Shown here piece by piece: positions 1-5,427 of a stretch of DNA of 5,427 nucleotides. The notes under the pieces are model-generated. The model searched no databases and had not been told where the DNA came from. It was given only the letters and a program-made list of their open reading frames with translations. Position 1 is the stretch's first letter. The number at the start of each line of letters is the position of its first letter. Both the position numbers and the translations under genes were made by a program. The DNA comes from a virus (Duplodnaviria > Heunggongvirae > Uroviricota > Caudoviricetes): the IMG/VR virus record IMGVR_UViG_2534681662_000019. One strand, given 5' to 3'.

Positions 1-330
1 CCGGACTGTACCAGCGAAAACGGCACCCTGTCCGAACGCCGGCGGGCTGCCGCGAATAAAATGCGTATGACCGGCAATCTGAGTCGGCGCTTTTATGAAT
101 GGCTGGCTGCGCAGTACGGTTTTACCGTCAGGCTGACGGATTCCACAGAAGGCCAGTGGGTTACGCAGGTCAATATTTACGGTATTAAAAATTATCGCAA
201 CGCAACGGTGCTGGATAATGTTCTGACGCCGTTACGTGTTTATGAATCGGGTGCGCTGGAATGTTTACTGGAGAAATATAAACCCGCGCATCAGATTTAT
301 AAATTTGTTTACCATGACGGAGATAACTAA
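1..330 (+). CDS. 3'-terminal part of a phage tail/baseplate protein gene (Mu gene-48-like); 5' end lies upstream of the window
   Basis: Frame 1 is open from base 1 with no stop before the ATG at 61 listed in the ORF track, so the gene probably starts upstream. Its TAA stop (328-330) overlaps the S start codon as TAATG, a coupling typical of phage late operons. Product assignment is by position only. Confidence 0.55.
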   Translation, partial: PDCTSENGTLSERRRAAANKMRMTGNLSRRFYEWLAAQYGFTVRLTDSTEGQWVTQVNIYGIKNYRNATVLDNVLTPLRVYESGALECLLEKYKPAHQIYKFVYHDGDN

Positions 331-1865
331 TGTTTTATATTGATAACGACAGCGGCGTAACCGTCATGCCGCCCGTATCCGCCCAGCGTAGTGCTATCGT
401 TCGCTGGTTTTCAGAAGGTGACGGGAATAATGCTATCACATGGCCCGGCATGGACTGGTTTAATATTGTGCAGGCGGAGTTATTAAACACGCTGAAAGAA
501 GCCGGTATTCAACCGGATAAAACAAAATTAAACCAGCTTGCACTGTCCATTAAAGCCATTATGAGCAATAACGCGCTGCTGATAAAAAATAACCTCAGCG
601 AAATTAAAACTGCCGGGGCATCAGCACAGCGTACAGCACGTGAAAATCTGGATATCTGGGATGCCAGCCTGAACAAAAAAGGCCTCGTTCAGCTAACCAG
701 TGCCACTGACAGCCCCAGTGAAACGCTGGCAGCCACCGCAAAAGCGGTGAAAATTGCGATGGATAATGCCAATGCCCGTCTGGCAAAAGAGCGGAACGGA
801 GCAGATATTCCCAATAAACCGCTGTTTATCCAAAACCTCGGTTTGCAGGAAACAGTAAACAAGGCTGGTAACGCCGTTCAGCGTTCCGGCGATAAAATGA
901 CCGGAGAACTGAAAATTGGCACGGTGAATGCGCTGCGAATTTTCAATGATGCCTTCGGTCTTATTTTCCGTCGTTCAGAAGAGTACCTTCATTTCATCCC
1001 TACGGCTGAAGGACAAGGCGAAAACGGTGATATCGGCCCATTAAGGCCATTCGCTATAAATCTGAGAACAGGTGCTATATCTGTCAGCCACGGGGCCAAA
1101 ATTGATGGTGGGCTGGCGCTTGGTACAGATAACGCACTGGGCGGTAATTCCATTACTCTCGGAGATAACGACACTGGTATTAAACAGGGCGGCGACGGTG
1201 TCCTTTTATTCTATTCAAATGGACAACTGGCATTTGGGCTTCAACCCGCATCTGCTGATTTTTATAAGCGGGTTGCATATATTCATCAGGGAATAATTCC
1301 TGATGGAAGTGGCGCATTTGCAGACCAGTTGAATAATGCCACCGCGCCTTTTGTTCAGACGCAGTTTGCCTGGAATCCCACTCCTGGTGGTCATTACGTG
1401 CCGATAGTTAAGGGCTTGTCCATTCGCAATGGACAGGGCTATCCCGGCGCGGTCAGCTTTGGGTATTTACTGACAGAACAGTATGGATTTCCGGTTCCAT
1501 GTATTCATATGCGTGGCGATGGCGGTAATGATGCTTTATGGCAGTTTAACCCGAACGATAAATCCTTTATTTCACCGGGTGCTCTTATTGCGGGTGGCGT
1601 CCATTATAACACCGATGGAAATATATTTGGTGGGTGCTGGGGTTCAAACTTAAATGATTACCTGAATAGTTCTTTTATCAGAAATGTGCGTCTGGGAGGC
1701 AGACGTTCTGACGTATTATATCGCGGAGGACTTTGCGAACCAGGTAATGGTCATGTGACAACAGGATTGCAAATTATTGGTGAGGTTGATGGAGATGACT
1801 GGATGGTGTCACGACCACTACAAAAATACATTTCTGGTAACTGGTATAACGTTGAACAGGCATAG
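330..1865 (+). CDS. S: Tail fibre protein S: constant N-terminal part (Sc, about 330-838) fused in frame to the variable part Sv inside the invertible segment
   Basis: 511-aa ORF with ATG overlapping the upstream stop. It reads through gixL (826-851) as ...FIQNLGLQETVNKAGNAV... It shares a Gly-rich block (ALGGNSITLGDNDTGIKQGGDGVL) and a C-terminal block (GLQIIGEVDGDD...WYNVEQA) with the minus-strand S'v cassette. Followed 15 nt later by a tail-fibre assembly gene. Confidence 0.9.
   Translation: MFYIDNDSGVTVMPPVSAQRSAIVRWFSEGDGNNAITWPGMDWFNIVQAELLNTLKEAGIQPDKTKLNQLALSIKAIMSNNALLIKNNLSEIKTAGASAQRTARENLDIWDASLNKKGLVQLTSATDSPSETLAATAKAVKIAMDNANARLAKERNGADIPNKPLFIQNLGLQETVNKAGNAVQRSGDKMTGELKIGTVNALRIFNDAFGLIFRRSEEYLHFIPTAEGQGENGDIGPLRPFAINLRTGAISVSHGAKIDGGLALGTDNALGGNSITLGDNDTGIKQGGDGVLLFYSNGQLAFGLQPASADFYKRVAYIHQGIIPDGSGAFADQLNNATAPFVQTQFAWNPTPGGHYVPIVKGLSIRNGQGYPGAVSFGYLLTEQYGFPVPCIHMRGDGGNDALWQFNPNDKSFISPGALIAGGVHYNTDGNIFGGCWGSNLNDYLNSSFIRNVRLGGRRSDVLYRGGLCEPGNGHVTTGLQIIGEVDGDDWMVSRPLQKYISGNWYNVEQA
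826..851. other. gixL: gixL recombination site for Gin invertase (TTATCCAAAACC-TC-GGTTTGCAGGAA)
   Basis: 26-bp site with two 12-bp half-sites around a central TC dinucleotide (838-839). It matches the gix/hix half-site pattern as I recall it and is present in inverted orientation at 3837-3862. It lies inside the S coding sequence, as expected for the Sc/Sv junction. Confidence 0.85.
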
Positions 1866-1880
1866 CCATCAGGAGAATAT

Positions 1881-2408
1881 ATGCAACATCTGAAAAATAT
1901 TACCGCCGGAAACCCCAAAACCATTGAGCAGTATCAGCTTACGAAAAAAGCTGGCGTTATCTGGCTATATACAGAAGACGGTAAAAACTGGTATGACGAA
2001 TTAAAAAACTTTCAGGATGATACTTTAAAAATAGCTTATGACCAGAAGGGGATTATTCGTTGTATTGAGAAAGACGTATCAATGCTTAACCCTGACGGGT
2101 TAAGTGTTGTTGAGTTACCGAATATAACAGCCAACCGTCGCGCCGATATCTCGGGAAACTGGAAGTTTCTGGATGGTAAAGTAGTAAAGCGGGAATATAC
2201 AAAACAGGAACTGCAACAGCAGGCAGAGTTACAAAAAGCCGCTTTGCTTTCCGAAGCGGAGTCTGTGATTCAACCGCTGGAACGTGCTGTCAGACTGAAT
2301 ATGGCAACTGATGAGGAACGCACACGACTGGAATCATGGGAACGCTACAGCGTTATGGTCAGCCGTGTGGATACTGCAAAGCCTGAATGGCCACAGAAAC
2401 CAGAATAA
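1881..2408 (+). CDS. U: Tail fibre assembly protein U (chaperone for S)
   Basis: 175-aa ORF with AGGAG (1871-1875) 5 nt upstream of the ATG. Clear paralogue of the minus-strand 177-aa ORF (both start MQHLKNI..GNPKT.EQYQLTK...[12 protein letters not shown] and share ITANRRAD). Position directly after the fibre gene. Confidence 0.9.
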
Positions 2409-2417
2409 CAACAAATT

Positions 2418-2440
2418 AAGGCCCGTACGGGCCTTTTCTT
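2418..2440. terminator. Bidirectional rho-independent terminator between the convergent U and U' genes
   Basis: Hairpin aaGGCCC-gtac-GGGCCtt (2418-2435) followed by TTTTCTT on the + strand and preceded by an A/T-rich run (TTAATTTGTTGTT on the - strand). It sits in the 30-bp gap between the U stop (2406-2408) and the U' stop (2439-2441). Confidence 0.6.
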
Positions 2441-2972
2441 ATTCTGGTGGTTCCGGGAATGTTACAGGAAGAACCGAGGTATCAGTTGTCTCAACCTGTT
2501 GCACGTATCGCATCCAGTTCATCAGTTGCTGTCTGTCTGAATCAGTGATAATCCCCAAAGTAAGCTGTGTTTGCCAGAACTGCGTTTTTTCTCTGGCCTG
2601 CTGTAATAATATTTTTTTCTGGTTTTCCGTCTGTAGGCGCAACTCTTCTTCGGTATATACACGTTTAATGACTGCGCCATCTTTAAACATCCATTTACCT
2701 GAGTCGTCAGCACGCCGGTTGGCGGTAATATCAGGAATCTCAACGACGCTATAACCTTCAGGGTTAAGTGTGGAGGCATCTTTGGTTATGGCAACAATAA
2801 TATTATTTTCGTCGTAAACAATCTTTATGGTGTCTTCCTGAAAGTTATTTACTTCCTCATACCAGTTTTTACCGTCTTCTGTATATAACCAGATAACATC
2901 AAAATTCTTTGTTAGCTGATATTGCTCTTTTGTTTTTGGATTTCCTGACTTAATATTTTTTAAATGCTGCAT
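2439..2972 (-). CDS. U': Tail fibre assembly protein U' (chaperone for the alternative fibre S')
   Basis: 177-aa ORF on the minus strand, paralogous to U. Its ATG (2970-2972) lies 1 nt after the S'v stop codon (TAA, complement of 2976-2978), with AGGTG just upstream on the minus strand. Confidence 0.9.
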
Positions 2973-2975
2973 AAT

Positions 2976-3848
2976 TTACACCTGTGCGACGTTATACCAT
3001 GTGCCATTGATGTATTTTTGTATTGGTCTGAAGATGGCTTCATCATCGCCATCTACTTCACCAATGATTCTTAATCCGGTAATTGCGTGTCCGGCTTTTT
3101 CATAACGACCACCACGCGCCATCAATTGAACAACACGCGTACCCAGGCGAACATCTTTCACATAGCGGGAATCAAAATTCCCCCAGTTGCTGGGTTGTAT
3201 CTGACCGTTAACAGCAAATATTACTGAGTTATCTGTATTTCGCTGACTATAGAAATGCCAGCCAGAATCATCGCCAAGCTCTGCAACAGTTGGCCTTGAC
3301 GAAGCGCCCCATAAATTAAACCCTACGTTCTTCGTGGAGTTGTTGGAGCTGGATAGCGTGAATTTTTTACCATCCCCGGCCTGAATATTTTTAAAAGCAA
3401 TAGCCACTCCATTCTGAAAGCGGAATACACGCTGACTATTAGCATAAACATCCAGAATACCGTCTCCATTCTGTTTAAATCCGGTGTCATTATCACCAAG
3501 AACAATAGAGCTACCACCTAACGCATTCGTCGTACCAACTCCAAGACTGCCATTAATGACGGCATTTACCAGAATATTTAGTGCATCCCATTTCAGCGTC
3601 ATCAGGTCTTTTGTTGTGGTGCTCTGGCGGCTTCTCCATTTGAAATATTCATTGCCGTTGTCGCCTGTTTCAAACCACATGTATGAATCAGTGTCACCAT
3701 CGGCATCATTTTTAAATCCAATCTTCGCCCAGTCAGTATTTCGAATCCAGGCAAGGATTGAGTCATTTTCAAAAGTAAGCCCACCGGACAAGGTATCGCC
3801 ATTTTTTTGCACGGCGTTACCAGCCTTGTTTACCGTTTCCTGCAAACC
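2976..3848 (-). CDS. S': S'v: promoterless, startless variable C-terminal cassette of the alternative tail fibre, expressed only after G inversion as an Sc-S'v fusion
   Basis: Minus-strand open frame homologous to Sv at both ends (QETVNKAGNAVQ... and ...GLRIIGEVDGDD...WYNVAQV). It has no ATG or RBS of its own; the ORF track's M at 3845 is a TTG that is the Leu codon of the shared ...NLGLQETV... junction. The frame is closed one codon outside the crossover by a TAA (complement of 3855-3857) within gixR. Confidence 0.85.
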   Translation of the reverse strand, partial: GLQETVNKAGNAVQKNGDTLSGGLTFENDSILAWIRNTDWAKIGFKNDADGDTDSYMWFETGDNGNEYFKWRSRQSTTTKDLMTLKWDALNILVNAVINGSLGVGTTNALGGSSIVLGDNDTGFKQNGDGILDVYANSQRVFRFQNGVAIAFKNIQAGDGKKFTLSSSNNSTKNVGFNLWGASSRPTVAELGDDSGWHFYSQRNTDNSVIFAVNGQIQPSNWGNFDSRYVKDVRLGTRVVQLMARGGRYEKAGHAITGLRIIGEVDGDDEAIFRPIQKYINGTWYNVAQV

Positions 3849-3870
3849 GAGGTTTTAGATAATGGCTGTT
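3835..3870 (+). promoter_or_regulatory. Candidate gin promoter overlapping gixR (-10-like GATAAT at 3858-3863)
   Basis: GATAAT hexamer inside the outer gixR half-site, about 55 nt upstream of the gin start; the -35 is weak. In the Gin/Hin/Cin family the invertase promoter is reported to overlap the adjacent recombination site. The exact hexamers here are my inference. Confidence 0.3.
3837..3862. other. gixR: gixR recombination site (TTCCTGCAAACC-GA-GGTTTTAGATAA), inverted relative to gixL
   Basis: Its reverse complement is TTATCTAAAACC-TC-GGTTTGCAGGAA, identical to gixL except for one base (C in gixL, T in gixR). Central dinucleotide at 3849-3850. Located between the S'v cassette and gin. 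Confidence 0.85.
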
Positions 3871-3916
3871 TCCGGCCTGCATGGCATGATTTGCGCTTTT
3901 AAACGGGAGATCCAGA

Positions 3917-4510
3917 GTGCTGATTGGCTATGTAAGGGTATCAACAAATGACCAGAATACAGACCTGCAACGAAACGCTCTTGTTTGTGCAGGATGTGAA
4001 CAAATATTTGAAGATAAATTAAGCGGAACAAGGACAGACAGACCTGGATTAAAGCGCGCTTTAAAGCGTCTTCAAAAAGGTGACACACTGGTTGTCTGGA
4101 AACTGGATCGCCTCGGGCGAAGCATGAAACATCTGATTTCTCTCGTCGGAGAACTACGGGAGCGAGGGATTAATTTTCGCAGCCTTACTGACAGTATTGA
4201 TACGTCATCCCCAATGGGGCGTTTTTTCTTCCACGTTATGGGTGCCCTAGCTGAAATGGAACGAGAACTAATCATCGAGCGAACGATGGCAGGACTTGCT
4301 GCCGCCAGAAATAAAGGCCGTATTGGTGGGCGACCACCTAAACTAACCAAAGCGGAATGGGAGCAGGCCGGGCGTTTATTAGCACAAGGAATCCCCCGCA
4401 AGCAGGTTGCATTGATCTACGATGTGGCCCTGTCAACTCTGTATAAAAAACACCCCGCGAAACGAACGCACATAGAAAACGACGATCGAATCAATCAAAT
4501 CGATCGGTAA
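3917..4510 (+). CDS. gin: Site-specific DNA invertase Gin (serine recombinase, resolvase/invertase family)
   Basis: ORF starting at GTG 3917 with GGGAG (3905-3909) upstream. N-terminus MLIGYVRVSTNDQ has the catalytic Ser at position 9. The catalytic domain and C-terminal helix-turn-helix (GGRPPKLTKAEWEQA...) are characteristic of Gin/Pin/Hin/Cin. Located directly beside gixR. Confidence 0.95.
   Translation: MLIGYVRVSTNDQNTDLQRNALVCAGCEQIFEDKLSGTRTDRPGLKRALKRLQKGDTLVVWKLDRLGRSMKHLISLVGELRERGINFRSLTDSIDTSSPMGRFFFHVMGALAEMERELIIERTMAGLAAARNKGRIGGRPPKLTKAEWEQAGRLLAQGIPRKQVALIYDVALSTLYKKHPAKRTHIENDDRINQIDR
3960..4075. promoter_or_regulatory. Candidate Fis-dependent recombinational enhancer (sis) within the 5' part of gin
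   Basis: In Mu the enhancer lies inside the start of the gin coding sequence. Here there are Fis-like 15-mers of the G-N13-C type with A/T-rich cores, for example GAAGATAAATTAAGC (4010-4024) and GCGCTTTAAAGCGTC (4056-4070), plus a weaker one at 3962-3976 whose centre is 48 bp from the first. The Fis motif is degenerate, so this placement is tentative. Confidence 0.25.
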
Positions 4511-4518
4511 TACAGATC
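4484..4518. promoter_or_regulatory. Cluster of three GATC (Dam) sites upstream of the mom promoter: the methylation-sensitive OxyR (MomR) operator
   Basis: GATC at 4484-4487, 4502-4505 and 4515-4518, each within a GATCGA/CGATCG context, just upstream of the -35 region. In Mu, OxyR binds this region when it is unmethylated and represses mom. The sites lie inside the last codons of gin. Confidence 0.65.
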
Positions 4519-4520
4519 GA

Positions 4521-4572
4521 TTATGTCTCAATAACCACACTCAACCCATGATGTTTTTTAAGATAGTGGCGA
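4521..4572 (+). promoter_or_regulatory. mom operon promoter (Pmom): C-activator dyad, weak -35, 19-bp spacer with T6 run, -10 TAAGAT
   Basis: TTAT-N6-ATAA dyad (4521-4534); -35-like ACCACA (4534-4539); 19-bp spacer; TTTTTT (4554-4559) abutting the -10 TAAGAT (4559-4564). This is about 30 nt upstream of the com RBS and matches what I recall of the activator-dependent Mu mom promoter. Confidence 0.55.
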
Positions 4573-4592
4573 ATTGATGCAAAGGAGGTGAG

Positions 4593-4781
4593 ATGAAATC
4601 AATTCGCTGTAAAAACTGCAACAAACTGTTATTTAAGGCGGATTCCTTTGATCACATTGAAATCAGGTGTCCGCGTTGCAAACGTCACATCATAATGCTG
4701 AATGCCTGCGAGCATCCCACGGAGAAACATTGTGGGAAAAGAGAAAAAATCACGCATTCTGACGAAACCGTGCGTTATTGA
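4593..4781 (+). CDS. com: Com, zinc-finger translational activator of mom
   Basis: 62-aa ORF with strong RBS AGGAGG (4583-4588). Cys-X2-Cys...Cys-X2-Cys motif (C6, C9, C26, C29). Its 3' end overlaps the mom start by about 50 nt, as in the Mu com-mom operon. Confidence 0.9.
4715..4737 (+). promoter_or_regulatory. mRNA hairpin (translation-inhibition structure) sequestering the mom start codon
   Basis: UCCCAC (4715-4720) pairs with GUGGGA (4732-4737). The 11-nt loop GGAGAAACAUU contains the mom Shine-Dalgarno GGAG, and the GUG start (4732-4734) is inside the 3' arm of the stem. Consistent with Com-dependent translational activation. Confidence 0.55.
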
Positions 4782-5427
4782 GTATGAAGGCCAGATTGTT
4801 GGCTATGGTTCAAAGGAGCTGCGCGTTGAAACCATATCCTGCTGGCTGGCCCGCACAATTATTCAGGCAAAGCACTATTCCCGCCGTTTTGTGAATAACT
4901 CTTACCTCCACCTGGGAGTATTCAGCGGACGCGATCTGGTTGGCGTTCTCCAGTGGGGATATGCCCTTAACCCCAACTCAGGTCGTCGTGTCGTGCTTGA
5001 AACGGATAACCGGGGCTATATGGAGTTGAACCGCATGTGGCTACACGACGACATGCCCCGCAACTCTGAATCACGGGCCATCAGTTATGCACTGAAAACC
5101 ATAAGGTTACTGTATCCGTCAGTGGAGTGGGTTCAGTCTTTTGCAGACGAACGCTGCGGACGTGCTGGCGTTGTGTATCAGGCGTCAAATTTTGATTTTA
5201 TTGGCAGCCATGAAAGCACGTTCTACGAGCTGGATGGTGAGTGGTATCACGAGATAACGATGAACGCGATTAAACGCGGTGGACAACGAGGCGTGTATTT
5301 ACGGGCTAATAAAGAGCGTGCCGTGGTGCACAAATTTAATCAGTATCGCTACATCAGGTTCCTGAACAAGCGAGCAAGGAAGCGACTAAATACCAAGCTA
5401 TTCAAGGTTCAGCCATACCCTAAGTGA
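4732..5427 (+). CDS. mom: Mom, DNA adenine-modification protein (anti-restriction)
   Basis: Long ORF ending at the window edge. GTG 4732 has GGAG 7 nt upstream and gives 231 aa, the length I recall for Mu Mom. The in-frame ATG at 4702 (241 aa) used by the ORF track has no RBS. Overlaps com in a different frame. Confidence 0.85.

Follow-up and report, generated by a model that had tools for sequence, protein, structure and literature searches.

A Mu/D108-type mom-operon promoter in a Mu-like element, very probably off by default and activated late by C

Pmom, the promoter of the mom operon, is a textbook case of a phage silencing a toxic gene by layered controls, in which an intrinsically defective promoter and an unwinding activator are combined with methylation-sensitive, nucleoid-protein, and translational controls. 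The stretch of viral DNA analyzed here (5,427 bp in full, hereafter the window) raises the question of whether the weak-looking promoter ahead of its com and mom genes belongs to this system and which of its features would keep it silent. Our answer, held with high confidence, is that positions 4484-4592 form the mom-operon promoter (Pmom, or momP1) of a Mu/D108-type phage, off by default and activated late by the phage protein C. This identification comes from near-identity to Mu and D108, published coordinates, and conservation, not from motif statistics. Pmom here is the extensively characterized Mu/D108 promoter, and the features listed below have already been published; the finding is a Mu/D108-like element with its standard control region intact, and it raises no new question. 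Modest added value lies in two observations, namely that variation among 15 copies spares every named element and that a T6 run is not retained in more distant mom operons.

Identity of the locus and position of the start site

The open reading frames identify the window as the right-hand end of a Mu-like phage genome, where an invertible G segment carries tail-fibre genes and is accompanied by the serine invertase gene gin (3917-4510; Pfam Resolvase/HTH_7). The first gene of the operon, com (4593-4781, plus strand), encodes a 62-aa zinc-ribbon protein (Pfam Zn_ribbon_Com, E = 2.7e-9), carries this name in both the Mu and D108 records, and has a Shine-Dalgarno sequence, AAGGAGGT, at 4582-4589 on the plus strand. 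The DNA-modification gene mom (4732-5427, plus strand; Pfam Mom, E = 2.2e-75) is given the GTG start of the Mu annotation, where the CDS lies at 35907-36602; a longer ATG reading frame begins at 4702, so that the product, which reaches the end of the window, is 231-241 aa long. An Rfam scan of the window returned no matches.

Across 421 bp (4380-4800), the window shares 99.8% identity with D108 and 98.8% with Mu. By alignment offsets, the feature of Mu record AF083977 annotated as 'late promoter, PMID 2522923' (35693-35759) corresponds to window 4518-4584, and the candidate -10 hexamer of the window, TAAGAT, lies within it. Both the Mu and D108 promoters have all of the named elements, the same spacing, and the same flanking gin and com-mom genes. 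Over a 151-bp alignment (4460-4610), D108 differs from the window at a single synonymous gin base, 4471. Relative to Mu, the window has C-to-T changes at -45 and -43 that turn the center of a dyad from GCCCCA into GTCTCA, as well as a different base at -75 that abolishes Mu's gin stop codon. None of these three differences, nor the private change at -100, touches a named element.

Positions 1-3900 hold G-segment tail-fibre and assembly genes unlike their counterparts in Mu and D108, and matches to these two phages extend over only 46% of the window. In the collections searched, full-length matches were confined to a few E. coli prophages and Yersinia phage vB_YpM_3, none exceeding 98.8% identity. 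The source of the window is thus a Mu-like element that differs in its host-range cassette and has no exact copy in those collections.

Published Mu reagents (PMC3378877 and PMC4461284) allow the Mu numbering to be transferred to the window through three anchors. The first is the mutation tin7 at -14, which falls at 4557 (PMC3378877; tin7 oligo TTTGTT, PMC4461284). The second is a footprinting primer annealing 'downstream of +56', which begins at 4627, or +57, and the third is a 78-mer spanning '-58 to +20', which ends at 4590, or +20. Since these three independent anchors agree, +1 is placed at the G at 4571 on the plus strand, seven bases downstream of the -10 hexamer. This putative start, transferred from Mu, where it was mapped by S1 nuclease, coincides with the position near 4571 that the initial annotation had predicted. 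It also sets the center of the dyad at -43.5 and puts tin7 inside the T6 run.

Promoter elements and their variation among relatives

The core of the promoter reads as follows on the plus strand. The proposed weak -35 hexamer, ACCACA (4534-4539; -37 to -32), matches TTGACA at 3/6 positions and is followed by a spacer (4540-4558) that script indexing puts at exactly 19 bp. The -10 hexamer, TAAGAT (4559-4564; -12 to -7), matches TATAAT at 4/6 positions. A run of six T residues, regarded as an inhibitory element (4554-4559; -17 to -12), adjoins and overlaps it, the two having one T (4559) in common. Bases -15 to -13 are TTT, and a wild-type extended -10 (TG at -15/-14) is absent. Direct reading and a script agree that the coordinates first given for the dyad, ACCACA, the spacer, the T6 run, and TAAGAT are all correct. 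The idea that a weak -35, a 19-bp spacer, and a T run would make the promoter dependent on C also accords with published work on Mu (PMC3378877, PMC2582627). In that work, the poor -35, suboptimal spacing, and intrinsic curvature of a T stretch are held to make Pmom weak and C-dependent (PMC3378877), ACCACA is termed a -35 element only as 'proposed', and the 19-bp spacing is set against the typical 17 bp (PMC2582627). PMC9303308 and PMC4461284 also deal with the 19-nt spacer and with how C untwists it.

Taken one by one, these motifs are at or near chance and statistically unremarkable. ACCACA is the best -35 hexamer over spacings of 14-21 bp (at 16-18 bp the best reaches only 2/6), although a 3/6 match is no better than chance would give. 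Stretches of at least six A or T occur 13 times in the window. The dyad motif, TTAT-N6-ATAA, occurs once against an expectation of 0.14, and 29 of 200 shuffled sequences also have at least one. Such figures are what would be expected if the motifs had come together by chance in the spacer between gin and com and the true promoter lay elsewhere. This alternative can be considered practically refuted already: the sequence is nearly identical to an experimentally mapped Mu promoter, it fits the published coordinates exactly, and natural variation spares its elements. In addition, a sigma-70 consensus scan of 3800-5427 at 16-18 bp spacing found no promoters, where shuffled sequences average 2.3, a result that leaves no canonical promoter to take its place and is consistent with a non-canonical one.

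Natural variation was assessed in an alignment of 15 copies, at least 96% identical, comprising the window, seven phages, and seven E. coli prophages; the last were picked to span 96-99% identity among the 46 carriers of the promoter found in 5426 complete E. coli genomes. The copies have no indels, and 11 columns vary within 4484-4592 (-79, -75, -74, -63, -58, -45, -43, -29, -22, -5, and -4). Two of these, -29 and -22, are inside the 19-bp spacer, the length of which is unchanged. None of the 11 falls in the GATC sites, the dyad arms, ACCACA, the T6/-10 segment, or the Shine-Dalgarno sequence, all of which are invariant (hypergeometric P = 0.0023); for 4519-4570 alone, the same test gives P = 0.019. 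Because the copies are close kin and the columns are not fully independent events, these P values lend modest support to selective constraint on the promoter elements.

Some of the variation bears on gin, the 3' end of which enters the Pmom control region. At 4471 (-100), the window has C where 14/14 relatives have T, a synonymous change in a His codon (CAC for CAT). Two single-nucleotide polymorphisms set the length of the gene. In Mu, a T at 4496 (-75) creates a TAA stop and a 193-aa Gin, while the window and D108 read on to the TAA at 4508-4510 (197 aa). In YpM_3, Mu_3F6, and E. coli A21, a C at 4508 moves the stop to the TAA at 4532-4534 and gives a 618-nt CDS. In those relatives, gin thus ends on bases that also form the right dyad arm, ATAA.

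The activator site, the -35 question, and the T run

The dyad occupies 4521-4534 (-50 to -37; center 4527.5, or -43.5) and consists of TTAT (4521-4524), the center GTCTCA (4525-4530), and ATAA (4531-4534). It is assigned as the C site by homology to Mu, where C binds a 16-bp imperfect dyad centered at -43.5 with a DNase I footprint from about -30 to -55 (PMC2582627); the published 16 bp correspond to window 4520-4535. The proposal that the dyad would serve as the binding site of the late activator therefore gains from the equality of the two centers. Only the central bases 4526 and 4528 vary among the copies, and the GTCTCA center is common to the window, D108, YpM_5, and one E. coli prophage. 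The C protein of D108 is identical to that of Mu at 139/140 residues, the single difference being at residue 138, near the C terminus. Co-variation of C with the dyad center was considered and rejected, as D108 and Mu C differ at this one C-terminal residue only. Since D108 has the same GTCTCA center, the variant site is served by essentially the same activator, C shows no compensating substitution, and the center appears to tolerate the two transitions. The changes at -45 and -43 do fall among the beta-strand and groove contacts of C and among the Fis sites at -49 and -38, and GTCTCA is less GC-rich than GCCCCA. It is conceivable, though quite improbable, that the altered center changes C-induced bending or unwinding, or Fis occupancy, and so gives D108-type phages another threshold for mom activation.

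The anatomy of the promoter, its Mu/D108 identity, and its pattern of conservation are properties of the window, and the mechanism is the one published for Mu. We infer that this mechanism, including dependence on C, holds for the window sequence despite the two central substitutions. In the off state, TAAGAT would be a weak -10, and the only -35-like hexamer, ACCACA, would be poor and, at a distance of 19 bp, out of phase with it. The T6 run against the -10 would distort the DNA and leave no TG for an extended -10. Free RNA polymerase would favor momP2, an overlapping leftward promoter. Fis would repress Pmom, as would OxyR on unmethylated or hemimethylated GATC sites. Late in lytic growth, C would bind TTAT-N6-ATAA, centered at -43.5, bend and unwind the DNA, shift or recruit polymerase onto Pmom, and then assist promoter escape through contacts with polymerase. 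Transcription would proceed from 4571 through com and then mom, the translation of which would also require Com. In Mu, C unwinds the DNA and brings in polymerase, whose clearance from the promoter it subsequently promotes via the beta' subunit (PMC4461284); in vivo, C needs the beta sliding clamp (PMC12867686). A cryo-EM preprint describes a C tetramer upstream of the -35 region in contact with the alpha-CTD, sigma region 4, and the beta flap.

Comparison with the other late promoters of Mu opens a second reading of ACCACA. The four Mu late promoters (10403-10469, 17977-18043, 27287-27353, and 35693-35759), Plys, PI, PP, and Pmom, all have ATAA, 24 nucleotides, and then a -10 hexamer, and the window has the same spacing. 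Like Pmom, the other three have a recognizable -10, no good -35, and an ATAAC right half-site. Perfect TTAT/ATAA arms, the GATC/OxyR region, and momP2 belong only to Pmom among the four. The promoters also differ in the step at which C acts: polymerase binds Plys, PI, and PP without C, which acts at isomerization, whereas at Pmom C is required for recruitment (PMC4461284). ACCACA may then not be a functional -35 at all. Pmom would be -35-less like its three counterparts, with C, possibly as a tetramer, contacting polymerase directly; the '19-bp spacer' would be merely descriptive, and no hexamers would be re-phased. The chance-level match of ACCACA agrees with this, as does the observation that Plys, PI, and PP, which 'lack recognizable -35 hexamers', nonetheless work with C at the same position (PMC2582627). 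The title of a study cited in PMC2582627 likewise states that C can activate mom without the C-terminal region of alpha or sigma-70. The cryo-EM preprint can be read both ways, as it stresses recruitment via protein contacts but places sigma region 4 near a 'potential -35 element'. Unwinding and re-phasing, however, are the stated mechanism in PMC4461284 and PMC9303308, and both ACCACA and the length of the spacer are unchanged in all 15 copies. We regard a -35-less Pmom as possible but somewhat unlikely, and retain ACCACA as the proposed -35 of a promoter that C would re-phase.

The T run calls for a more qualified view. Mutating it had been suggested as a test for activator-independent expression, and the experiment is already in the literature: with G in place of T at -14, the tin7 mutant acquires an extended -10 and no longer depends on C (PMC3378877), and the tin7 oligo, TGTTAAGAT, reads TGnTAAGAT (PMC4461284). 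The same T6 run lies directly against the -10 of Mu Plys, which polymerase binds without C (PMC4461284). The T run thus does not suffice by itself to switch a promoter off. The 'off' architecture envisaged in the initial annotation is supported by the Mu literature as a whole, but not with the T run as its only cause.

More distant mom operons were compared as well. A search of genome contigs with Mom gave three loci, one of which was left out for having too little upstream DNA; in the other two (L009 and L010), the Mom proteins are 82-84% identical to that of the window. Upstream of com, both L009 (1258-1340) and L010 (1265-1345) retain clustered GATC sites together with a half-site of the ATAAC type, which lies some 23 nt ahead of a candidate -10. 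L009 has GATC-N12-ATAA exactly as in the window, and L010 has two GATC sites only. A T6 run is absent from both upstream regions, which tentatively suggests that it may be a refinement of the Mu clade and not a general feature of mom promoters.

These observations could also be accounted for if the T6 run repressed only by occupying the place of the TG of an extended -10, with bending uninvolved and tin7 acting through a gained polymerase contact. The TGnTAAGAT of the tin7 oligo, and the statement in PMC3378877 that tin7 turns Pmom 'into an extended -10 promoter', fit such an account well. So do the binding of polymerase to Plys in spite of its T6 run and the lack of the run in the two distant operons. 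Against it, PMC3378877 also blames the 'intrinsic curvature conferred by a T stretch', and a JBC 2001 paper cited there declares in its title, 'Intrinsic DNA distortion of the ... momP1 promoter is a negative regulator'. Preservation of the full T6 run in all 15 copies weighs on the same side. An effect confined to the TG place is unlikely in our view, and distortion by the T run is kept as one probable part of the off state.

Further control layers and likeness to other regulated promoters

Layered control by Dam/OxyR and Com, which had been suggested for this locus, is documented for Mu (PMC3378877). It goes further than was noted at first, as the literature adds Fis sites, the divergent momP2, and the need of C for the beta clamp. 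Upstream of Pmom, the Dam/OxyR control region contains three GATC sites (4484-4518), at 4484-4487 (-87/-84), 4502-4505 (-69/-66), and 4515-4518 (-56/-53); 3/8 of the GATC sites in the 5427-bp window thus lie within 35 bp. Dam/OxyR control of Pmom is described in PMC3378877, and the titles of its references 12-13 also speak of OxyR binding being blocked by methylation. The clustering of GATC sites that marks a Dam/OxyR methylation-sensitive operator is found here, and OxyR binding is predicted; a literature search for OxyR footprint coordinates at mom found nothing usable. In the case of Fis, binding occurs at -123, -98, -49, -38, and +3 and occludes polymerase.

A further layer is momP2, a divergent promoter overlapping Pmom at which polymerase sits in the absence of C (PMC3378877, PMC4287176). 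The best minus-strand -10-like hexamer in 4480-4580 is CATAAT (4520-4525, minus strand; 5/6 match to TATAAT), which overlaps the dyad's left arm. A published 'P2 disrupted' oligo alters exactly these bases, from ATTATG to GTTGCG (PMC4461284), and CATAAT is likely the momP2 -10. If so, binding of C and use of momP2 would exclude each other. No convincing -35 for momP2 was seen on the bottom strand, where the best match is 2/6.

At the level of translation, an RNA hairpin, CCCACGG...UGUGGG (window about 4715-4737), covers the GTG start of mom at 4732. We take it to be the known translation-inhibiting structure that Com relieves. The fold stability of the whole leader is ordinary (z = -0.48).

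How, then, does Pmom compare with other regulated promoters? PMC9303308 places Pmom and its activator in one group with MerR and SoxR, whose promoters, like Pmom, have a 19-nt spacer, -35 and -10 elements that are out of phase, and an activator that untwists the DNA for polymerase. The 19-20-bp spacer of this class is present in the window at 4540-4558 if ACCACA is accepted as the -35. The dyad, however, which in MerR/SoxR promoters is inside the spacer, here lies at -50 to -37 and overlaps the -35 from upstream. Moreover, the Pmom hexamers are poor (3/6 and 4/6), and C is a protein of the Mor/C family rather than the MerR family. Pmom may therefore work in a similar way without being a member of the MerR/SoxR class.

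The upstream control region finds its counterpart in agn43 of E. coli. Both agn43 and mom are under Dam/OxyR control, with a cluster of three GATC sites in the region bound by OxyR and methylation that blocks the repressor. At agn43, the cluster lies over the core promoter and the outcome is phase variation, whereas at mom it lies upstream of the activator site and gates a phage late gene.
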